Source: an uncultured Chloroflexia bacterium
GTDB taxonomy: Bacteria; Chloroflexota; Limnocylindria; Limnocylindrales; CSP1-4
Direction: 5' to 3'
Assembly: GCA_963704145.1 (NCBI GenBank)
Contig: CAVPHB010000006.1
Location: 686,624 to 750,623, forward strand
DNA: 64,000 nt
A program made the position numbers and the translations under genes. Below, one piece after another: positions 16,350-27,735 of this stretch. The notes under the pieces were generated by a model. It was not told the origin of the DNA, did no database searches, and saw only the letters and a list, made by a program, of their open reading frames with translations. Within the stretch, counting starts at the first letter, position 1, and the number at the start of each line of letters is the position of its first letter.

Positions 16350-17148
16350 CGTTCCCCGCCCGGCTCGAGCGATTTCGCGCGAGGTCGACTCGACCCAGCG
16401 CGTGGTGCGCGAGTGGCTGGCCGCCGGGCAGGCCGAGGTGGCCGTCGCCGTCGCCGACGCACCAGACCGCGCGGCCGCGGCCGACAGGGCCGGAATGGCT
16501 CGCGCCGCCCGGCGCAGGTCTGCTGCTGTCGGTGGGCTTCCGGCCCGGTGAGCCTGGCCGCCGCGCCACGCCTGGCGCCTGGCGGCCATCGTGGCGCTGG
16601 CGATGCGCGATGCGGCGGAGGAGGCAGCCGGGCTTGCCGGACGGGCACGCTGTGGCTCAAGTGGCCCAACGACCTGGTCGCCGAGGCGGGGGGCCACGGC
16701 AGGGGGGCGCCTGCTCAAGGTCGGCGGCGTGCTGGGCGAATCGGTCCATGTCGGGCGAGCGTGTCGAATCCGCCGCGGTCGGGCATCGGCATCAACAGCG
16801 ACTGGCAGGCGGCCGACTTCCCGTCGGGCTCTGGCACGCGCCGATGACCAGCCTGCACGAGCTTTCCGGCGGCCGGCCGATCGACAACGACTGAGCTGCT
16901 CGACGCCTTCCTGGCCCGCCTCGAGCCGCGCTACGAGGCGCTGCACCGCGGGCCTGTTCGACGCCGGCGGCTGGTCCGTGGCGCAGATCACGACCGGCCG
17001 CCAGGTGGACGTCGATCTGGGCGGCGAGTCGGTTCGAGGGATAGCTGCCGGCGTCGATCCGGAGAGCGGTGCTCTGCTGCTGACCGGCGACGACGGCGTC
17101 GAGCGGGGGATCGACAGCGGTGAGGTCATTCGCTGCCGGCTGGCCTGA
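16346..17148 (+). CDS. birA: Biotin--[acetyl-CoA-carboxylase] ligase, frameshifted
   Basis: VDSTQ, QT.GRGR.GR.W, LKWPNDL, KVGGVL, GIGIN, GVDPESGALLL. Confidence 0.88.
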
Positions 17149-17243
17149 CCGCGCCCAGGCGCTGTTGGCATCCATGGATGGCGATCGGGCGGGCTTGGTG
17201 TAACGGGTAGACTTCGACCGGTGTTGAGGAGAGGGAAGGACCG

Positions 17244-17850
17244 TGTGCCGGTCTGGTCAATGACGTCGACCGCTCCGCCGTGGAGGCGGCTCGACGCGAT
17301 CCGCGCGCCTTCGAGGCGCTTTATCGGAAGTACGTCGCCCAGGTGTACAACTTCGCGCTCTACGAGCTCCGTGACCAGCACGCCGCCGAGGACCTGACCG
17401 CCCAGGTCTTCCTGCGCGCGCTGGCCGGCCTGCGCCACTTCCACGAGCAGGCGAGCCGGCCCCTGACAGCAGCTTCCGCGTCTGGCTCTTCCAGATCGCG
17501 CGCAACGCGCTGGCGAACGAGCGCCGACGGATGCGTCGCCATCCCCAGGCGGTCACTCGACGCTGCCCTTCGAGATGCCCGCCGCGGACGATGTCCAGGC
17601 CACCGTGCGCCGAGCGCGCCGAGGTGCGCGCGGCGCTGGCGGCGATTGATCGTTGCCGGCCGATCGGCGCCGCGCGCTGGTCCTGCGCTTCGTGAACGAG
17701 ATGAGCACGCGCGAGATCGGCCAGGTGCTGGGCCGCTCGGAGGGCGCCACGCGCGTGCTGATCCATCGCTCCCTGCAGGCCGTGGCGCGGTCAACTTGGC
17801 CGCGGCCGCGCGCGCGAAGACGCGGCGGAGCGCAGGCGCGCGCGAATTGA
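17244..17850 (+). CDS. ECF-family RNA polymerase sigma factor, frameshifted
   Basis: [57 protein letters not shown]. Confidence 0.88.
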
Positions 17851-18209
17851 TGTTCCGCGAAGCCGAAGAGGGGCCGATCCAGAGCGACGCGTACATCGAC
17901 GCGCTGCTCAGCGGCCACGCGCGCCTGCCGGTCCCGCTGCCGGCGCTCCGGAGCGCGCCATCGCCCAGCGTGCGCGCACGTCATCCGGCTGCTCGAGCGT
18001 GGGCATGCCGCGTTTCCATCCGTCGTTCCTGTTCGAGGAGCGCCTGGCCGAGCAGCTGCGCGAGGCCCGACCTAGGACGGTCCGTGTCAGCGCCGCGAGC
18101 GTCATCGACCGGCGCGTCGCTGATCAGGCGGCGCGATCGCGTCCGGCGTGTCGACTCGCCGGCGCGGCGATGTGGGCCTGGCGCGCAGCCGGCGCGACGG
18201 CTCGAGTAG
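17850..18209 (+). CDS. Small membrane-anchored hypothetical protein, candidate anti-sigma factor, frameshifted
   Basis: TGATG coupling to the sigma gene; [17 protein letters not shown] followed by a C-terminal hydrophobic segment ending AGAAMWAWR. Confidence 0.5.
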
Positions 18210-18221
18210 GGCAGGCCAGAC

Positions 18222-19138
18222 ATGCCCATCAAGCTGCCCTTCGGTGGTCGTCGCGAGTCTACCCGACCAACCTGTGGACGCGCTGTCCCGATTGCCAGGA
18301 GATGCTCTACAACAAGCAGCTCGACAAGAACCAGCGCATCTGCCCGCGCTGCGGCCATCACTTCCGGCTGCGCGTCGACGCGCGCATTGCGCTGCTGCTC
18401 GACCGCGACAGCTTCCGCGAGCAGGACGCCGGGCTCGAGTCGGTCGACATGCTCGGGCTTCGTCGACCAGAAGCCGTACCCGGAACGTCTCGCGGCGGCG
18501 CGCAGGTCGGCGACCGGCATCCGCGACGCGGCGGTGTGGGGCACGGGCACCATCGCCGGCACGCGCGTCGCGCGTGTGCGTCATGGACTTCGCCTTCATG
18601 GGCGGTTCGATGGGCACGGTCGTCGGCGAGAAGGTCACCCGCGCCGCCGAGCACGCCTCGAGCCGAGCGGCTGCCGTTGATCATCGTTTCCGCGTCGGGC
18701 GGTGCGCGGATGCAGGAGGGCACGCTGTCGCTGATGCAGCTGGCCAAGACGTGCGCCGCCCTGGGCCGGCTGGCCGACGCCGGCGTGCCGTACATCAGCT
18801 TGTTGACCGACCCGACCACCGGCGGCGTCTTCGCGTCGTTCGCCGCGCTGGGCGACATCAACATCGCCGAGCCGCAAGGCGCTCATCGGCTTCGCCGGCG
18901 CACGGGTGGCGGCCGGCACTATCGCCGAGAGTTGCCCGAGGGCTTCCAGCGCGCCGAGTTCCTGTTCGAGCACGGCTTCGTCGACCTGGTCGTGCCGCGC
19001 GCCCGAGCTGCGCGAGACGCTTGCTCGGGCTGCTGCGCTACATGCGCCCGGCGCCGCGAGGTCGGCGGCAACGGCGTATCGCCGCTCGGCCGCTCGCCGG
19101 CGCTTGAAGCAGCTCCCGGCGAGCCGATCCGTGGCTGA
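18222..19138 (+). CDS. accD: Acetyl-CoA carboxylase carboxyltransferase beta subunit, frameshifted
   Basis: [48 protein letters not shown]. Confidence 0.93.
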
Positions 19139-20128
19139 GCAGCCCGTGGCCGCCGAGGAGACTGCGAGGCGGCCGTCTGGCTGCGCGTCCAGCAGGCGCG
19201 CAACGTCAAGCGCCCGCACACGCTCGAGCTGGTCCGCGCTGATGGCGACCGAGGTCATCGAGCTGCATGGCGACCGGCTGTTCCGCGACGACCCGGCGAT
19301 CGTCGGTGGCTTCTGCCGCATCGACGGCCGGCGCGCCGTCTTCGTCGGCCACCAGAAGGGCGCCGAGACCGACGAGAACATCCGGCGCAACTTCGGCATG
19401 CCCCACCCCGAGGGCTACCGCAAGGCGATCCGGCTGTTCCGGCTGGCCGAGCGCCTGCAGCTGCCGGTGGTGACCTTCGTCGACACGCCGGGCGCCTTCC
19501 CCGGGCCCGCCTCAGAGGAGCGCGGCGTGGCCGAGGCGATCGCCCGCTCGATCATGGTCATGACTGGCCTGCGGACGCCGATCGTGACTGTCATCACCGG
19601 CGAGGGCGGTTCGGGCGGCGCGCTGGCGCTGGCCGTCGGCGACGTCGTCCTCGCGCTCGAGAACTCGATCTACTCGGTCATCAGCCCGGAGGGCGCCGCG
19701 AGCATCCTGTGGCGCTCGGCCGAGTTCTCGCAGCAGGCGGCGGTGGCCATGCGCCTGACTGCCGCCGAGCAGCTCGCGCTGGGCGTGATCGACGAGGTCG
19801 TGCCCGAGCCGGCCGGCGGCGCGCACGTTCATCCCGACGAGACCGCCAAGCGCTGCGCACTCGGATCGCCGCACACCTCGACACTCTCGCCGGACGCGAC
19901 CGGCAAGCTGCTGCTCGACGCGCGCTACGCGCGCTATCGCCAGATGGGCGAGTTCGCCACGGTGACGCCACACGGGCGAGCCGCGGCCCGACCGGCCGGG
20001 CCTGGTCGATCGCATCCGCCAGATGCTCGATAGCGGTCGCGCCGCGCTGGTCGGCGAGGCCGTGCTGCCGTCAGAGTGCGGCCGATCAGCGGATGACTGA
20101 AGTCCGCACCCTGCGCGAGGACGTCTAG
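19131..20128 (+). CDS. accA: Acetyl-CoA carboxylase carboxyltransferase alpha subunit, frameshifted
   Basis: [48 protein letters not shown]. Confidence 0.93.
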
Positions 20129-20131
20129 GCG

Positions 20132-20661
20132 ATGGCGACACGAAGACACCGACCGCGCGCACCATCGCTCGGCTGGCCGACGAGATGGTGCCGACGCTGA
20201 TCGAGCGGCTGGCCGGCAGCGAGCTGGGCGAGCTCGAGGTGCGCGAGGACGGCTGGCGCGATCAGGCTGCGCCGACCGACCCTGTTGCCGACGTCAGCGA
20301 CGCCGACGTGATGGCCACGGCGCGGTCGGTGCGAGCGGGGCGGGCAGGACTCGCCGCGGACGCCGGCACACGCCCGCGAGTCACCAGCCAGCCTGCGAGC
20401 GACGCCGGGCGCACGGAGCCGGCGCGCGGCCTGATCACCTCACCGGCGGTCGGCTACTTCGCCCCGCGCGACGGCGTGGCCGTTGGCGGCCGGTTGCGCA
20501 GCGGCGACGCGATCGGCCATGTCGACATGCTGGGCGTGCGCCACGAGGTCGTCAGCCCGATCGACGGGATGCTCCGGACGATCGAGGTCGAGGCCGGCCA
20601 GGCGGTCGAATACGGCCAGCCGATCGCGCGCCTGGTAGCCCGATGTTTAGCCAGATCCTGA
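20132..20661 (+). CDS. BCCP-like biotinyl-domain protein lacking the biotinylation lysine (BADC-like)
   Basis: [14 protein letters not shown]-terminus, [25 protein letters not shown] (DMLG in place of EAMK), VEYGQP. Confidence 0.8.
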
Positions 20662-22011
20662 TCGCCAACCGGGGCGAGATCGCGCTGCGCATCGTGCGCG
20701 CCTGCCGGCGCATGGGGATCACCTCGGTCGTCGCCTACAGCGAGGCCGATCGCGACTCGCGCGCCGTGCAGCTGGCCGACGAGGCAATCTGCATCGGACC
20801 GGCCGAGTCACGGCGCAGCTACCTGTCCGCGCCGGCGCTGCTGTCGGCCGCGCTGGTCTCCGGCTGCGACGCGATCCATCCCGGGTTACGGCTTCCTGTC
20901 CGAGGACGACACGTTCGCCGAGATGACGCGCGCCCATGGCCTGGACTTCATCGGCCCGCCGCCCGAGGTGCTCGAGCGCTTCGCCTCAAAGGCCGGCACA
21001 CGCACGCTTCTGGCCAAGCACGGCCTGCCCACGATACCCGGCTCGGGCATGCTGCGCGACGACGGCCACGCCCTGACCGAGGCGGACAAGATCGGCTACC
21101 CGGTGCTGCTCAAGCCGTCGGCCGGCGGCGGCGGCAAGGGAATGCGCATGGTCCGCTCGCCGCGCGAGCTGCAGCAGGCCATCACCGTGTGTCGATCCGA
21201 AGCCCAGGCGGCCTTCGGTGACGACTCGCTCTACCTCGAGAAGTGGCTCGAGGAGAACCGCCACGTCGAGGTCCAGGTCATCGTCGACCGCTACGGCAAC
21301 GGCGTCCACGTCGGCGAGCGCGACTGCTCGGTCCAGCGCCGCCACCAGAAGCTGGTCGAGGAGGCGCCCAGCCCGGCGCTCGACGACGGCCGGCGCGAGG
21401 CGCTGGCCGAGGAGGCCCTGCGGGCCGTCGTCGCCGCCGGCTACGAGAACCTGGGCACGCTCGAGTTCCTGCTCGACCGAGACGGCAACTACTACTTCAT
21501 CGAGATCAACTGCCGCATCCAGGTTGAGCACCCGGTGACCGAGATGCTGTCCGGGCTCGATCTCGTCGCCGAGCAGATCCGCATCGCCGCCGGCGAGCCG
21601 CTCGGCTACAGCCAGGTCGACGTCGTTCGGCGCGGCCATGCGATCGAGTTCCGCATCAACGCTGAAGACACCGAGAACGACTTCCGGCCACAGGCCGGGC
21701 TGATCGAAAGCTATCTGCCGCCGGGTGGGCCGGGCGTGCGCATGGACAGCCACCTGTACAGCGGCTACGACGTGCCGCCGTACTACGATTCGCTGCTCGG
21801 CAAGCTCATCGTCTGGGGACCAGATCGGGCGGCGGCGATCGCCCGCTCGCGCCAGGCGCTGGACGAGCTGATCGTCGACGGCGTGGTAACCAACGTGCCG
21901 CTGCACAAGGCGCTATTGCAGCACCGTGCCTTCCTTGACGGTGAGTTCACCACCAACCTGCTCGATCGCGTCGGCAGCGCCGCCTTTCTGGCCGCCGCCC
22001 GCGCCGCCTGA
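20643..22011 (+). CDS. accC: Biotin carboxylase, frameshifted near 20885
   Basis: [58 protein letters not shown]. Confidence 0.95.
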
Positions 22012-22036
22012 GCCCGCGTGAGACAGGAGAATCGCA

Positions 22037-22520
22037 TTGACCGACGCCACTGACGCCCTGCGCCGCGAGGGCGTGGTGCTGAGCGCCAGCCAGATCCAGA
22101 AGCTGATCCCGCACCGCTGGCCGTTCCTGCTCGTCGACCGCATCGTCGAGTACGACCCGCAGCGCTCATACATCCGCGGCGAAAAGGCAGTGACCGTCGA
22201 GCGAGTGGTTCTTCCAGGGCCACTTCCCGGGCTTGCCGGTGATGCCCGGCGTCCTGCAGGTCGAGGCGCTGGCCCAGACGATGGCCGTCTACGTCGCGCA
22301 GCAGGAAGGCTTCGGCGATCGGATCGGGCTGTTCGCGGGCATCGACGAGTGCCGCTTCAAGCGCGTCGTCCAACCCGGCGACCGGCTGACGCTCGAAGTG
22401 ACCATGGACAAGCTCGGCCGGCGCTTTGGGCGAGGTCGGGCGGTGGCCAGTGTCGATGGCGAGGTGTGCTGCGAGGCGACCATCTCGTTCGTCATCCCGG
22501 GCGAAGGGGCGCTCGGCTGA
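22037..22520 (+). CDS. fabZ: 3-hydroxyacyl-ACP dehydratase, frameshifted near 22200
   Basis: IPHRWPFLLVDR, GHFPG.PVMPGVLQVEALAQ, FKRVVQPGD. Confidence 0.93.
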
Positions 22521-23272
22521 TGGCACTCCGGCTGGCTGTGCTGGGTGACATCCACGGCAACCTTCTTGCACTTGAGGCGGCCCTGGCCGACATCAAGCGC
22601 CACAAGCCCGACCGGCTGCTGATCACGGGCGACCTGCTGCTCAACGGTCCGCGGCCGGCGGAGGTGCTCGACCGGGTGCGCGCGCTGGATGCCAAAGGCG
22701 CGTTCGTGGTGATGGGCAACACCGACGTGGCCGTGGCCGACTTCGACTACGCCGCCGCCTTTCCGTGGTTCGATGAGGTGCCGGCGAGTCAAAGCGCGGC
22801 CGCCGAGTGGGCCCACGCACAGCTGTCTGACGAGCAGCTCGACTACCTGAGCCGGCTGCCGTCCGAACGGCGGCTGTGGGCCGGCCAGCAGCTGGTGCTG
22901 GTCTGCCATGGCTCGCCGGGCAGCATGACCGCCGGCCTGTCCACGGACCTCGACCCGACCGTCACCGTCGAGCGCGCCACGCGCACCGACGCACGGGTCA
23001 TCGCCTGCGGTCACACCCACATCGCCGATGTGCGCGAGCTGGGACGCAAGCTGATCGTCAATCCCGGCTCGTGCGGCTACGCCTTCGACGGCGACGCGGC
23101 CGCCTGCTGGGCGTTGCTGACGCTGCCCGACGACGAGGACGGTGCCCCGACGGCCGAGCTGTTTCGGCCGCCCTACGACGCACACGCCGCGGCCGAGGAG
23201 GTCGGCGCGCGCGGCTTGCCGGGCGACGTGTATCGCGCAGCGACCATTCGCACCGGCAGACACGTGCGATGA
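22520..23272 (+). CDS. Calcineurin-like metallophosphoesterase (YfcE-like)
   Basis: DIHGN, GDLL, GNTD, HG, GHTH, NPGS motifs. Confidence 0.88.
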   Translation: MALRLAVLGDIHGNLLALEAALADIKRHKPDRLLITGDLLLNGPRPAEVLDRVRALDAKGAFVVMGNTDVAVADFDYAAAFPWFDEVPASQSAAAEWAHAQLSDEQLDYLSRLPSERRLWAGQQLVLVCHGSPGSMTAGLSTDLDPTVTVERATRTDARVIACGHTHIADVRELGRKLIVNPGSCGYAFDGDAAACWALLTLPDDEDGAPTAELFRPPYDAHAAAEEVGARGLPGDVYRAATIRTGRHVR

Positions 23273-24543
23273 CGTCGCCGCAGCTTGCGCCGCGCAGGCG
23301 TGTAGTGGTCACCGGCATGGGCACCGTTACGCCGCTCGGCAACGACGTGGCCACGTTCTGGTCGCGTCTCGTGGCCGGCGGATCGGGCGTGCGCACGACC
23401 ACGGGCTTCGATCCGGCGCGCGTGGCAAGCAGGATGGCCGGGGAGGTGCAGGACTTCGACCCGTCGGCCGTCCTCGATCGCAAGGACACCCGGCGCGCCG
23501 ACCGCTTCACGCAGCTGGCGCTCGTGGCCGTGCGCGAGGCGATGATCGAGGCCGGACTGCCCGATCGCCTCGAGGGCGAGCTGGCCGATCGCACCGGGGT
23601 GATGATCGGCTCCGGCCTCGGCGGATCGGCCACGCTCATCGAGCAGATCTCGATCAACGCCACGCGCGGCCCCGATCGGCTGTCGCCGTTCTTCATCCCG
23701 ATGGCCATCGCCAACCTTGCCGCGGGCCAGTCCGCAATCAGCTTCGGTGCGCGCGGGCCGAACTTCGCCACGGTCAGCGCGTGCGCCTCGGCCGGCCATG
23801 CGCTCGGCGAGGCGGCCGAGACGATCATCCGCGGCGACGCCGACGTGATGCTGGCGGGCGGCTCGGAGGCACCCGTGGTCGAGGCACTGGTCGGCGGCTT
23901 CGCCGCGATGCGCGCCCTGTCGACGCGCAACGACGACCCGCCGGGAGCAAGCCGGCCGTTCGACCAGGCCCGTGACGGCTTCGTCGTCGCCGAGGGCGCC
24001 GGCGTGGTCGTGCTCGAGGAGCTCGGCCACGCCCGACAGCGCGGCGCCCGGATCCTGGCCGAGCTGTGCGGCTACGGCGCCACGGCCGACGCCAACCACA
24101 TCACCCTGCCCGGACCGGGCGGCGAAGGCGGCGTGCGCGCCGCGCGCCGGGCGCTTGAGAAGGCGGGCATGGCGCCGAGCGACATCGACCACATCAGCGC
24201 CCACGCCACGTCGACGCCGGAGGGCGACCCAGCCGAGCTACGCGGCTTCTTGACTCTGCTCGGCGACCATGCCGCGAACGTGTCGATCGCCGCCATCAAG
24301 GGCGCCATCGGCCACACGCTCGGCGCGGCCGGCGCGATCGGTGCCGTGGCTGCGATCTGCGCCATGCGTGACGGCGTCGTGCCACCCACGCTCAACCTGG
24401 TCGACCCGGCACCCGAGACGGACGGACTCGATTGCACTCCCCTGAGCTCGCGCACGCGCGAGGTGCGCGTCGCGCTGGTCAACGCGTTCGGCTTCGGCGG
24501 CCAGAATTCGGCCCTCGTCTTCCGCCGCTGGGACGAAGGCTGA
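23269..24543 (+). CDS. fabF: Beta-ketoacyl-ACP synthase II
   Basis: VVVTGMG, SACAS (Cys), RPFDQARDGF, AHATST (His), KGAIGH (His), NAFGFGG. Confidence 0.93.
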   Translation: MTSPQLAPRRRVVVTGMGTVTPLGNDVATFWSRLVAGGSGVRTTTGFDPARVASRMAGEVQDFDPSAVLDRKDTRRADRFTQLALVAVREAMIEAGLPDRLEGELADRTGVMIGSGLGGSATLIEQISINATRGPDRLSPFFIPMAIANLAAGQSAISFGARGPNFATVSACASAGHALGEAAETIIRGDADVMLAGGSEAPVVEALVGGFAAMRALSTRNDDPPGASRPFDQARDGFVVAEGAGVVVLEELGHARQRGARILAELCGYGATADANHITLPGPGGEGGVRAARRALEKAGMAPSDIDHISAHATSTPEGDPAELRGFLTLLGDHAANVSIAAIKGAIGHTLGAAGAIGAVAAICAMRDGVVPPTLNLVDPAPETDGLDCTPLSSRTREVRVALVNAFGFGGQNSALVFRRWDEG

Positions 24544-25037
24544 TGAGCCGTCCGCGGGCCGTCAGCTCTGCGCCAGGCTTGATCGAGCTGATCGATCGGC
24601 TCGAGGCGCTGCTCAACGCGTCCGAGCTGTCCGAGATCGAGATCGAGGCCGGCGGGACGACGCTGGTGCTGCGCAAGCCGGTCGCGTTCGGGCCCCCCGA
24701 TCCGCTCGCGGCGGGATCGACGGCCGCGGCTGCGCCGTCCGCAGCGACCGACCCAGCACCCAAGACCGAAAGCGCCACGGCGCCGGCCGGCCAGGTCAGC
24801 GCCAACGCGATCGTCGCTCCGCTGACGGGGCTCTACTACTCGTCGCCTTCGCCGGGGGCGGAACCGTACGTGCGCGAAGGCAGCCAGGTGATGGTCGGCC
24901 AGGTGATCGGGCTGATCGAGGCGATGAAGTTGTTCAACGAGATCAAGAGCGACCGGGCCGGCCGGGTGACGCGCATCCATGCCGAGAGCGGTGCGCTGGT
25001 CAAGGCCAAGCAGCCCCTGATTGAGGTGGAGCCATGA
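24543..25037 (+). CDS. accB: Biotin carboxyl carrier protein (canonical)
   Basis: APLTGLYYSSPSPG, IEAMKLFNEI with biotin-accepting Lys. Confidence 0.93.
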   Translation: MSRPRAVSSAPGLIELIDRLEALLNASELSEIEIEAGGTTLVLRKPVAFGPPDPLAAGSTAAAAPSAATDPAPKTESATAPAGQVSANAIVAPLTGLYYSSPSPGAEPYVREGSQVMVGQVIGLIEAMKLFNEIKSDRAGRVTRIHAESGALVKAKQPLIEVEP

Positions 25038-26215
25038 ACCAGCGCAGTGTGCGCGTCACCGGTTGGGGCATGTACGCGCCGGAGCGCGTGCTGACCAATG
25101 CCGAGCTGGAGCGCGTGGTCGATACGTCAGACGAATGGATCCGCTCGCGGACCGGGATTCGCGAGCGGCGCATCGCCGCGGCGCACGAGACAACGGCAAC
25201 GCTGGCGGCGATTGCCGGCAAGCGCGCCGTCGCCGTCGCCGGGCTGCAGCCGGACGACATCGACGTGATCCTGGTCGCCACCCTGACGCCCGACTACTGG
25301 ATGCCTTCGACCGGCGCGCTGGTCAAGGAAGCCATCGGCAACACCCGGGCGCCGGCGATGGACGTGGCCGCCGCGTGCTCCGGTTTCGTCTATGCCTACT
25401 CGATCGGCGACGCCTACCTGCGCTCGGGCGCCTTCCGCCACGCGCTGGTGATCGGCTCCGAGACCTTGTCGCGCTTCCTCGATTTCTCTGACCGGGGGAC
25501 GTGCATCCTGTTTGGCGATGGCGCCGGGGCGGTGGTGCTTTCGGCGTCCGACGAGGCGGGCGGCGGCATGCAGGGGCTGGAGATGACCACCGACCCGGAC
25601 GGCGCGTACATGATCTGGCTGCCGTCGGGCGGATCGCGCAGTCCGGCGTCGGGCCAGACCCTCGCCCGCGGTGAGCACTACGTGCGCATGGAGGGCAAGG
25701 AGACCTACCGTTTCGCAACCAAGACGATGGCCACCACCGCGCTCAAGGCGATCGAGCGAGCCGGCTGGCAGCCCGACGAGATTGACCTGTTCATCCCCCA
25801 CCAGGCCAACGTGCGGATCATCGAATCGGTGGCCAAGGGCCTCAACCTGTCGATGGACAAGATGTTCGTCAACCTCGACCGCTACGGCAACACCTCGGCG
25901 GCGTCGGTCCCCATCGCCCTGGCCGAGGCGGTCGACTCGGGGCGCATCCAGATTGGCGACAAGATCGTGCTGGTCGCCTTCGGCGCCGGCCTGACCAGCG
26001 GTGGCATCGCGCTCGAGTGGACGGCCGATCCGGCGTGGGGCAAGCGCGCCGCCTCGGTTGATCCGGCAGCCACGGTGCGCGAGCCGCTCGACTGGGGCTC
26101 GGTCGACCCGATCCCCGAGCGACTGCGCCAGATTCTCGACGGCGGCCCGCCGGTGCCGCTCGACGACGTCGTGCCCGGTGAGCCGGAACATGCCAACCGG
26201 GAGGTGCTCGCGTGA
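25034..26215 (+). CDS. fabH: Beta-ketoacyl-ACP synthase III
   Basis: DTSDEWIRSRTGI, AACSGF, FGDGAGA, PHQAN, YGNTSAAS. Confidence 0.95.
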   Translation: MNQRSVRVTGWGMYAPERVLTNAELERVVDTSDEWIRSRTGIRERRIAAAHETTATLAAIAGKRAVAVAGLQPDDIDVILVATLTPDYWMPSTGALVKEAIGNTRAPAMDVAAACSGFVYAYSIGDAYLRSGAFRHALVIGSETLSRFLDFSDRGTCILFGDGAGAVVLSASDEAGGGMQGLEMTTDPDGAYMIWLPSGGSRSPASGQTLARGEHYVRMEGKETYRFATKTMATTALKAIERAGWQPDEIDLFIPHQANVRIIESVAKGLNLSMDKMFVNLDRYGNTSAASVPIALAEAVDSGRIQIGDKIVLVAFGAGLTSGGIALEWTADPAWGKRAASVDPAATVREPLDWGSVDPIPERLRQILDGGPPVPLDDVVPGEPEHANREVLA

Positions 26216-26961
26216 TCGACCTTACCGGCAAGGCCGCCGTGATCACCGGCGGTGGGCGCGGGATCGGCCGAGCGATCGCTCTGCGCCTGGCCGCGCAGGG
26301 CGCGGATATCTGCTTCTCCTATCGCGGCAACGCGGCCGCGGCCGCGGCGACCGTCGCCGATCTGGAACAGCTCGGCCGGCGCGCCCTGGCCGTACAGGCC
26401 GATGTGACCCAGGCCGAGGCGGCCGAGGCGCTGATCAAGGCGGCCATCGACGCCTTGGGCAAGGTCGACATCCTGGTCAACAACGCCGGCATCACTCGTG
26501 ACGACCTGATCATGCGCATGACGCCCGAGGCGTGGCGTGACGTGCTCGAGACCAACCTGTTCGGGGCGTTCTACACGCTCAAGGCGGTCACCCGGCCGAT
26601 GCTCCGCGCCAAGAGCGGCCGGATCATCAACATCACCTCGGTCTCGGGTCAGGCCGGCCAGATGGGCCAGGCCAACTACTCGTCCGCCAAGGCCGGCCTG
26701 ATCGGGCTGACCAAGGCCGCCGCGCGCGAGCTCGGCTCACGCGGGATAACGGTCAATGCCGTGGCGCCCGGCTTCGTGCTGACCGAGCTGACCGCCGGGT
26801 TGTCCGACGAGTGGAAGCAGCGCATCAACGAGCAGACGCCGTTGGGCCGCTTCGGCACGGTCGAGGAGGTTGCCTACGCGGTCGCGTTCCTGGCTTCCGA
26901 CGAGGCGGCGTATATCACCGGTCAGGTGCTCGCCGTCGACGGCGGCCTGGTGATGATGTAG
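26212..26961 (+). CDS. fabG: 3-oxoacyl-ACP reductase
   Basis: TGGGRGIG, NNAGITRD, GQANYSSAKAG, NAVAPGF. Confidence 0.95.
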   Translation: MIDLTGKAAVITGGGRGIGRAIALRLAAQGADICFSYRGNAAAAAATVADLEQLGRRALAVQADVTQAEAAEALIKAAIDALGKVDILVNNAGITRDDLIMRMTPEAWRDVLETNLFGAFYTLKAVTRPMLRAKSGRIINITSVSGQAGQMGQANYSSAKAGLIGLTKAAARELGSRGITVNAVAPGFVLTELTAGLSDEWKQRINEQTPLGRFGTVEEVAYAVAFLASDEAAYITGQVLAVDGGLVMM

Positions 26962-26988
26962 CTCGGTCCACGGGTGGCGGCGTCCGCA

Positions 26989-27009
26989 GGTCGGGACGCG
27001 GTCCCGACC
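26989..27009. other. Perfect GC-rich hairpin after fabG (terminator- or REP-like)
   Basis: GGTCGGGAC-GCG-GTCCCGACC; no U-tract. Confidence 0.45.
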
Positions 27010-27014
27010 GCTGA

Positions 27015-27080
27015 TGAGTCGGTTAGGCAGATCACTCCGGGCGTCATCGGCTTAGCCTGTTGATCCGCGAAACCGACTCA
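27015..27080. repeat. TGAGTCGGTT...AACCGACTCA palindromic element, copy 1
   Basis: 10-bp perfect terminal inverted repeats; first 20 nt are 19/20 identical to 46114-46133. Confidence 0.75.
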
Positions 27081-27189
27081 CGGGCAGATCCTTGCCCGCC
27101 AGGCCGGCGCTGGCCGCTGGCAGACGCCGATGACCACTCGCCCACAGCGACCTCTGCCCGCCGCCTGCGAACGAGGCGCCCCGTGCCGG

Positions 27190-27735
27190 CTAGTCGATGA
27201 GGCCGCGCGCAGCAAGGTACGAGATGACCTCGACTGCGTTCTGGCCGACGGCCCGGCCGACAGTCTCAAGGCGCAGCTCAGGCGTCAGGGGCGGCTCGTA
27301 GGGGTCGCCCACGCCGGTCATCTGTGCCACCTCGCCGCGCTGCGTTGCAGCGTACAGGCCCTTCACGTCGCGTTGCATTACCACGGCGAGCGGCGTGTCC
27401 ACGAACACCTCGACGAACGAGCCGCTGCCGCCCGCGACGTCGACCATCGCGCGCACCTCGTCGCGCGTGGAACGGTACGGGCTGACCAGGGCGCAGACCA
27501 CGATGCCGCCGTGGCGCACGATCTCGGCAGCAACGAAGCCGACCCGGCGCACGTTCTCGTCGCGGTCCTCACGTGAAAAGCCCAGCCCGCGCGACAGATG
27601 GGTGCGCACCACGTCGCCGTCGAGGACGGTCACAGCCCGGCCGCGCTCCTCGAGCAGCGGCACGATGCGCTCGGCGGTGGTCGTCTTGCCCGACCCGGAC
27701 AGGCCCGTGAACCACAGGCAGACGCCGCGCGTCAC
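27190..27735 (-). CDS. cysC: Adenylyl-sulfate (APS) kinase
   Basis: WFTGLSGSGKTT, LDGDVVR, LGFSREDRDENVRR, RDVKGLY, DPYEPP. Confidence 0.93.
   Translation of the reverse strand: MTRGVCLWFTGLSGSGKTTTAERIVPLLEERGRAVTVLDGDVVRTHLSRGLGFSREDRDENVRRVGFVAAEIVRHGGIVVCALVSPYRSTRDEVRAMVDVAGGSGSFVEVFVDTPLAVVMQRDVKGLYAATQRGEVAQMTGVGDPYEPPLTPELRLETVGRAVGQNAVEVISYLAARGLID

Follow-up and report, generated by a model that had tools for sequence, protein, structure and literature searches.

A conserved lysine-less BCCP paralog encoded in the acc operon of Limnocylindria, a possible non-catalytic partner of biotin carboxylase

This work concerns a gene located at 20132..20661 on the plus strand of a 64,000-nucleotide stretch of DNA from an uncultured Chloroflexota bacterium of the class Limnocylindria (contig CAVPHB010000006.1 of assembly GCA_963704145.1, positions 686,624 to 750,623), referred to below as the window. 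The gene lies between accA and accC and encodes a homolog of the biotin carboxyl carrier protein (BCCP) of acetyl-CoA carboxylase (ACC) in which the lysine that accepts biotin is replaced by glycine. Within the class the loss of the acceptor site is conserved, the gene is under purifying selection, it stands in the acc operon and it coexists with a canonical AccB. We put at roughly one half the probability that the product belongs to the multi-subunit ACC as a constitutive subunit without catalytic function, which docks on the biotin carboxylase (BC) AccC while biotin is carried by the separate AccB. Binding to AccC is predicted from a structural model of the complex, and from the evidence as a whole we infer a role in assembly or stoichiometry rather than in inhibition.

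The lysine-less protein and its conservation

The gene and its parts are as follows.

20132..20661, plus strand: gene of the lysine-less BCCP paralog; assembled open reading frame (ORF) 20185-20661 (158 amino acids), with ATG 20132 as the probable true start and a 1-base frame error
20161..20262, plus strand: N-terminal BCCP-type domain, helix and first strand of the hairpin; the second strand, IRLRRP, is in another frame
20263..20439, plus strand: variable linker rich in Ala, Pro and Arg, unalignable and of varying length; pLDDT <50 at residues 43-75 of the ortholog model
20440..20640, plus strand: C-terminal biotinyl-like beta-barrel without the acceptor Lys and six residues of the thumb; pLDDT ~97, with fold matches
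20533..20535, plus strand: Gly codon GGC at the position of the biotinyl-Lys; the motif VDMLGV replaces EAMKM/L

The original prediction, made from the DNA letters, of a BCCP-like protein devoid of the biotinyl-Lys between accA and accC has been confirmed. Since GGC differs from both Lys codons, AAA and AAG, by two or more substitutions, the replacement is not a single-base error, and the BCCP N-terminal segment (LIE..SE.ELE) that was said to be retained is present in the window ORF. The hairpin of the canonical AccB encoded at 24543-25037 reads GQVIGLIEAMKLFNEI. The further statement that the ORF contains no Lys holds for 20185-20661, but the likely N-terminal extension has an AAG codon at 20143-20145 and the orthologs contain 0-7 Lys residues; the conserved trait is the missing acceptor Lys, not a Lys-free protein. 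A search for a substitute acceptor found no column with Lys in more than 50% of the rows in either of two alignments, A1 (28 orthologs from two families) and A3 (25 rows).

Among the genomes of relatives (Chloroflexota, Candidatus Limnocylindrales and Limnocylindrus) a match to the lysine-less protein was found in 39 of 41, with 23/24 in the genus and 15/16 in the sister family; this tally includes one unpublished genome (G003), and the two genomes without a match are 68% and 90% complete. In a sample of 401 genomes of the phylum all 45 Limnocylindria genomes, the unpublished G182 among them, gave a match (families f1 23/23, f2 4/4, f3 16/16 and f4 2/2), and the gene is kept even in the streamlined genomes of ~1.1 Mb labelled Candidatus Limnocylindrus. 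The motif x(D/E)x(L/V)G(V/I/M) occurs in all 20 fetched loci of the genus and in all 12 further loci. It had been asked beforehand whether orthologs in relatives retain the MK pair of true carriers, and none do: Gly is invariant at the Lys position in 28/28 rows of A1. When the A1 profile was run against 1.84 billion representative proteins it gave 13133 matches with E<=1e-3 (2602 with E<=1e-10 and 131 with E<=1e-30), and among the best 150 of these 13133 the 147 that align at the Lys column all have Gly (147/147). Close homologs, among those listed, have Gly in 120/120 cases. Two loci of the Limnocylindria type, L112 and L059, come from records titled 'Thermoflexus hugenholtzii' and 'Candidatus Sulfotelmatobacter sp.', taxon labels that are probably wrong.

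The ratio of nonsynonymous to synonymous substitution rates (dN/dS, NG86 method) of the lysine-less gene, computed over the C-terminal 67-70 codons, ranges from 0.01 to 0.2 in close pairs (0.06 for L030/L031, 0.05 for L026/L027, 0.06 for L015/L017 and 0.12 for L003/L006), with similar values for canonical accB in the same genome pairs. A ratio near 1, named beforehand as a sign of decay, is thus far from what the close pairs give; only these are considered, as distant pairs drift towards 1 and are uninformative, a rise that we attribute to compressed dS in a GC-rich, codon-biased lineage. Between families the identity of the lysine-less protein is 28-34%, against 49-53% for AccB.

The three-part architecture of BCCP is retained. 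The AlphaFold model of an ortholog (G005) has a mean pLDDT of 80.7 and comprises a helix (residues 2-19) and a hairpin (24-37), both with pLDDT 84-92, a disordered linker (43-75) and a barrel (89-158, pLDDT ~97). In the N-terminal domain residues P11, L13, R16, L22, E24, E26 and G31 are invariant in 28 orthologs. By Foldseek the C-terminal barrel matches biotinyl domains of BCCPs, namely 1bdo (E 1.3e-6, TMt 0.82) as well as 4hr7_G and Arabidopsis BCCP1 (9a87), the best matches being the thumb-less BCCP of P. horikoshii (TMt 0.85-0.92, 34-36% identity). The 'thumb' insertion is a typical feature of ACC-type BCCP. The family profile aligns with full-length E. coli BCCP (4HR7_B) at 4.5e-19, positions 12-152 of the profile corresponding to 28-176 of the chain, with 2+4 residues missing at the thumb, and hhalign against the profile of the canonical AccB of the class (probability 98.3, 27% identity) places a 6-residue gap at the same site.

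The window ORF 20185-20661 passes the cut-off of the Pfam model PF00364 Biotin_lipoyl (27.8 vs 22.1 bits). The NCBIfam model of BCCP, TIGR00531, aligns end to end (positions 8-155 of 156), and of the features that define this family the N-terminal domain, the Ala/Pro linker and the barrel are present, whereas the acceptor Lys and the thumb are absent and the score stays below the cut-off of 115.2 bits: 39.1-53.5 bits for four Gly-type lysine-less proteins and 103.9 for the Lys-to-Asn type of Ktedonobacteria described below. The canonical AccB of the class itself scores 105.7, also under 115.2. NCBIfam has no dedicated model for the lysine-less protein, which is named 'acetyl-CoA carboxylase biotin carboxyl carrier protein' by JGI and 'biotin/lipoyl-containing protein' by NCBI.

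In the clean locus L033 the gene order is accD-accA-lysine-less gene-accC-fabZ...fabF-accB-fabH. Altogether 80 loci were fetched, of which 75 are of the lysine-less type; the other five, all proteobacterial, encode ordinary EAMK BCCPs. Of the 75, 58 have a same-strand accB with the IEAMKL motif 4-5 kb further downstream (the remaining 17 comprise 15 with too little downstream sequence and two with partial matches). In several of 25 clean loci the start of accC overlaps the last few bases of the lysine-less gene, which suggests coupled translation. In another Limnocylindria family fabD (Acyl_transf_1, L131:4489-5454) is inserted between the lysine-less gene and accC, with overlapping stop and start codons. 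The AccB of the class encoded at L033:10224-10787 ends with 'VKAKQP', while most BCCPs and the lysine-less paralog have 'VEYGQP'.

Distribution and history of the family in Chloroflexota

The original prediction located the paralog in the acc operon, which is correct for Limnocylindria; it missed the wider spread of the family, which in many families of the phylum resides mostly at the efp locus. Outside the class 56 loci were inspected, a biased sample made of the top-scoring places of the A1 profile. The Lys is retained in 16 and replaced in 40, by Asn in 20, Gly in 12, Arg in 4, Ala in 2, and Met and Ser in one each. The Lys-to-Asn lineage includes cultured Ktedonobacteria (Thermogemmatispora, Dictyobacter), and the 120 homologs listed for it comprise 117 with Asn, two with Asp, one with Ala and none with Lys. 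The Gly-type protein of family f21, which is efp-linked, retrieved 19 matches when used as a query. In the ESM Atlas, besides Chloroflexota clusters, there is one cluster of 146-amino-acid 'biotin-requiring enzyme domain' proteins, mostly from Armatimonadota, a lead to a possible Lys-less BCCP outside the phylum.

In the lysine-less loci outside Limnocylindria efp lies immediately upstream in 6/7 of those examined, preceded by pepP, and xseA is next in 4/6 of those scanned downstream. The same pepP-efp-[ ]-xseA slot holds a Lys-bearing accB (149-170 bits) in 5/5 genomes of other families; xseA is adjacent in all five, and efp was found in 3/5 by means of short loci, and by Pfam in L115 and L128. 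Loci with this slot were seen at L113-L130 and L191-L195. One genome with a Lys-bearing accB after efp (G337; L196, L200) has two further BCCP-like ORFs, with the hairpins EVMKLM and GVMKTF. Five genomes with a lysine-less copy in the efp slot were checked, from distant families (L133, L134, L136, L137 and L139), and in all five fabF is immediately followed by a second accB, which encodes EAMK; this linkage is also seen in the window (23290-25037). In Limnocylindria the slot is empty, xseA coming immediately after efp.

The phylogeny, computed by IQ-TREE with the LG+C20 model, covers 59 rows over 155 alignment columns. A single branch (ultrafast bootstrap 98, SH-aLRT 88) separates the Lys-less rows from the Lys-bearing ones of Chloroflexota and Proteobacteria, and 20/21 lysine-less rows of Limnocylindria group together, nested among the efp-linked Gly-type proteins, the exception being one very long branch. 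A duplication within Limnocylindria was rejected, since forcing its Lys and no-Lys rows into one clade cost 35.7 log-likelihood units (p-AU 0.027, approximately unbiased test).

Tree and gene order together suggest one old loss of the Lys followed by relocation into the acc operon in Limnocylindria. According to this reconstruction the ancestral accB would have sat after efp; the efp copy would have lost its Lys, probably once, in lineages endowed with a second, fabF-linked accB, and would have been kept; and in the ancestor of Limnocylindria the Lys-less copy would have moved between accA and accC. This new, class-wide context is the strongest genomic hint of an ACC-related job.

Predicted contact with AccC and possible function

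The window genome has four Biotin_lipoyl matches and two BCs. Its sole stand-alone BC is the accC product encoded beside the lysine-less ORF; the other BC adjoins a biotinyl domain and is encoded on another contig. The complex of AccC with the lysine-less protein was modeled from two self-made alignments of 25 rows each (A2 for AccC and A3 for the partner). The ipSAE was 0.77, 0.78 and 0.76 in three runs, the best control giving 0.00; this mark is reached by 58/80 solved complexes and by 2/110 mismatched pairs. At least 68% of the contacts are common to the runs, and the pLDDT of the partner is at least 65. Predicted contacts join residues 94-97, 121-122, 124, 146 and 148-151 of the lysine-less protein with residues 34, 49-53, 64-73 and 98 of AccC, and of the eight C-domain positions that are invariant in A1 five take part (A94, V95, G96, E148 and G150). 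To this extent the model supports a contact with AccC, subject to the likeness to a solved complex noted below.

In the mechanism proposed here the lysine-less protein would use the conserved surface of its barrel, and probably its N-terminal domain as well, to dock on AccC. It would be a part of the BC-BCCP sub-complex or determine its stoichiometry, and the Lys-bearing AccB encoded after fabF would carry the biotin. An extension of this reading is possible, though we hold it tentatively and on somewhat less than even odds: much of the phylum would run a five-component ACC, in which the efp-linked BCCP became an obligatory 'dead' carrier after the fabF-linked BCCP had taken over catalysis, an independent invention of the BADC principle known from plants.

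Several points weigh against the subunit reading. The complex score may be a memory of the solved E. coli BC-BCCP structure (4HR7) and so reflect likeness, not binding, and the N-terminal domain has not been placed by the model. Sequence change in the family outpaces that in its partners (a mean of 44% identity per column, against 78% for AccC). The tree has 155 columns only and several long branches, and the group for the approximately unbiased test was defined with the tree already known. Outside Limnocylindria the paralog is unlinked to acc genes, with none within ~4 kb in most families inspected, and the argument from the operon is therefore limited to the class. The window's own copy is frame-disrupted, as are the neighbouring genes, and a search of sequencing runs gave no RNA run and no run with more than 0.10 of the sampled words.

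A BCCP-like, non-carboxylatable protein predicted to sit on AccC through a conserved face of its barrel could also be a decoy, competing with holo-AccB for biotin carboxylase and acting as a negative regulator of malonyl-CoA supply, the role that was first proposed for plant BADC. BADC has been described as a competitor of BCCP for BC (PMC10440990, PMC7712654), but later work favours an assembly role (PMC11926652, PMC10440990), and a gene that is constitutively co-encoded, overlaps accC and is kept in 1.1-Mb genomes fits a stoichiometric subunit better; we regard inhibition as unlikely. Less probable still is a function outside ACC, with the barrel and the N-terminal domain recruited for another partner, e.g. 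in the efp/xseA neighbourhood or in the control of biotin ligase. It would suit the position of the gene between efp and xseA, remote from acc genes, in most families inspected, and the variation of the residue at the Lys position among lineages (G, N, R, A, M, S). However, because a Lys-bearing accB occupies the same slot elsewhere, the efp context is inherited and says little; the sole newly acquired context is the acc/fab operon, kept class-wide in Limnocylindria, and the BCCP N-terminal domain is retained.

That the gene is a non-functional relic, i.e. a duplicated accB in decay, is very improbable. The missing catalytic Lys, the shortened thumb, the low score with the BCCP model (45.7 vs 115.2 bits) and the disrupted frame of the window copy could be read in this way, but the gene is present in 45/45 sampled genomes of the class, its ORFs are intact in clean assemblies, its motifs are invariant and its dN/dS in close pairs equals that of canonical accB, while frame errors occur in accD, accA, accC and fabZ as well and are therefore a property of the assembly. 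The pseudogene reading is thus contradicted by conservation, intact orthologs and selection. We give next to no credence to a sequencing or assembly artefact that would have created the Gly codon in a normal accB: the assembly is indeed indel-rich, but an indel does not turn a Lys codon into GGC, for which two or more substitutions are required, and the reading is refuted by the same Gly in hundreds of independent assemblies.

Plant BADC is reported to lack the biotinylation motif and to bind both BC and BCCP, and it is seen as a competitor or as the 'glue' of the BC-BCCP sub-complex (PMC11926652, PMC10440990, PMC7712654, PMC11889953); whether it inhibits or assembles is still debated (PMC11926652, PMC10440990). 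Like it, the Chloroflexota protein is a homolog of BCCP, lacks the biotinylation motif and occurs beside a true BCCP, and its contact with BC is predicted. It differs from the plastid protein in being bacterial, operon-encoded and, by synteny, derived from an efp-linked accB, and we expect, as an anticipation and not as a result, its origin to be independent of plant BADC. To our knowledge BADCs have been held to be absent from prokaryotes. Because the tests that might have overturned it failed to do so and the complex model supports contact with AccC, the description of the paralog as a BADC-like analog seems fair as a functional label, for a protein that is conserved, selected, non-biotinylatable by sequence and coexistent with accB. 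The original reading, that of a BADC analog or homolog which would regulate fatty acid synthesis, is thereby supported in part.

Among other known systems, AccB of the E. coli type has the same three-part architecture and aligns over its full length, and the lysine-less gene stands directly before accC, the classical place of accB; the differences are DVLGV in place of EAMKM, the absence of six thumb residues and faster evolution. The Pyrococcus horikoshii BCCP (PDB 2D5D/2EVB/5GU8) has a similar thumb-less barrel and is the best structural match but, unlike the lysine-less protein, bears the biotinyl-Lys and is a true carrier. The actinobacterial epsilon subunits AccE/PccE are small and non-catalytic and are described as 'glue' for holoenzyme assembly (PMC11926652). 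The role proposed here, that of a small non-catalytic carboxylase subunit, is alike. AccE/PccE are, as far as we know, unrelated in sequence and fold and not derived from BCCP.

In its available portion a study of Chloroflexus ACC treats Lys-bearing BCCPs only (PMC11077971). No description of a bacterial Lys-less BCCP paralog was found in the full-text literature, a search whose coverage leaves out most subscription journals and which is no proof of absence. As far as could be found, the proteins described here form a large unrecognised Chloroflexota family, the known non-biotinylated BCCP-like subunits being confined to plant plastid ACCase. An operon-encoded bacterial family, present also in 1.1-Mb genomes and in cultured Ktedonobacteria, would offer a simpler system for learning what a 'dead' carrier does. 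For annotation it means that metabolic reconstructions may count a carrier unable to carry biotin, and for gene evolution it is a clear case of paralog displacement in which the displaced copy has been retained. If the five-component reading is true, a non-biotinylated BCCP partner would be a recurrent, perhaps mechanistically required, way to build or tune BC-BCCP sub-complexes.

Gene organization of the window and quality of the assembly

ORF calls, Pfam and ortholog protein matches delineate one string of ACC and fatty-acid synthesis genes on the plus strand at ~18.2-27 kb of the window, in the order accD, accA, lysine-less gene, accC, fabZ, phosphoesterase, fabF, accB, fabH and fabG. The neighbours of the lysine-less gene are listed below.

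18222..19102, plus strand: accD, carboxyltransferase beta; frames 3/2/3 in the assembly
19022..20100, plus strand: accA, carboxyltransferase alpha; frames 2/3/1 in the assembly
20643..22011, plus strand: accC, biotin carboxylase; ATG within the end of the lysine-less ORF, frame 3 to 1 near 20881
22073..22520, plus strand: fabZ; frame 2 to 3 near 22200-22234
23290..24543, plus strand: fabF; start approximate
24543..25037, plus strand: canonical accB with EAMK, the real biotin carrier (Pfam, ortholog matches)
25034..26215, plus strand: fabH (ORF call, ortholog match)

The window genome (2.6 Mb in 8 contigs) is 51% complete by marker genes. Four genes of the string, accD, accA, accC and fabZ, each switch frame in the window. 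Because the longest piece of each stays 55-90% identical to intact orthologs, and because each is an uninterrupted ORF in the clean locus L033, we read the frame changes as probable indel errors of the assembly and not as decay. As the assembly appears indel-rich, gene calls are expected to be fragmented across the whole genome.

The lysine-less gene is affected in the same way, its Gly codon being untouched by the disruptions. It had been assigned to 20132..20661; the ATG there does not share the frame of the 20185 ORF, yet it remains the probable start in the light of the orthologs. These begin 14-36 residues upstream of the position matching 20185 and have a conserved 'TIARLADE' segment there, and the window has this segment in the frame of the 20185 ORF but without a preceding start codon; for this reason the true start is probably 20132, followed by a 1-base indel at about 20135-20155. 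Near 20258 a change of frame also takes the near-invariant strand 'IRLRRP' out of the ORF.

No plus-strand terminator-like site was found in 17000-27500, where a promoter and terminator scan gave 0 promoter-like sites and one minus-strand terminator-like site, not more than in shuffled sequence; a scan of the whole window at the Rfam gathering thresholds gave 0 matches. A gene for a calcineurin-like metallophosphoesterase (22520-23272) lies between fabZ and fabF and is kept in the clean locus (L033:8309-9070). Just upstream of accD there is an ORF (17280-18209), seemingly frame-disrupted, the translation of which resembles by eye an ECF-type sigma factor.

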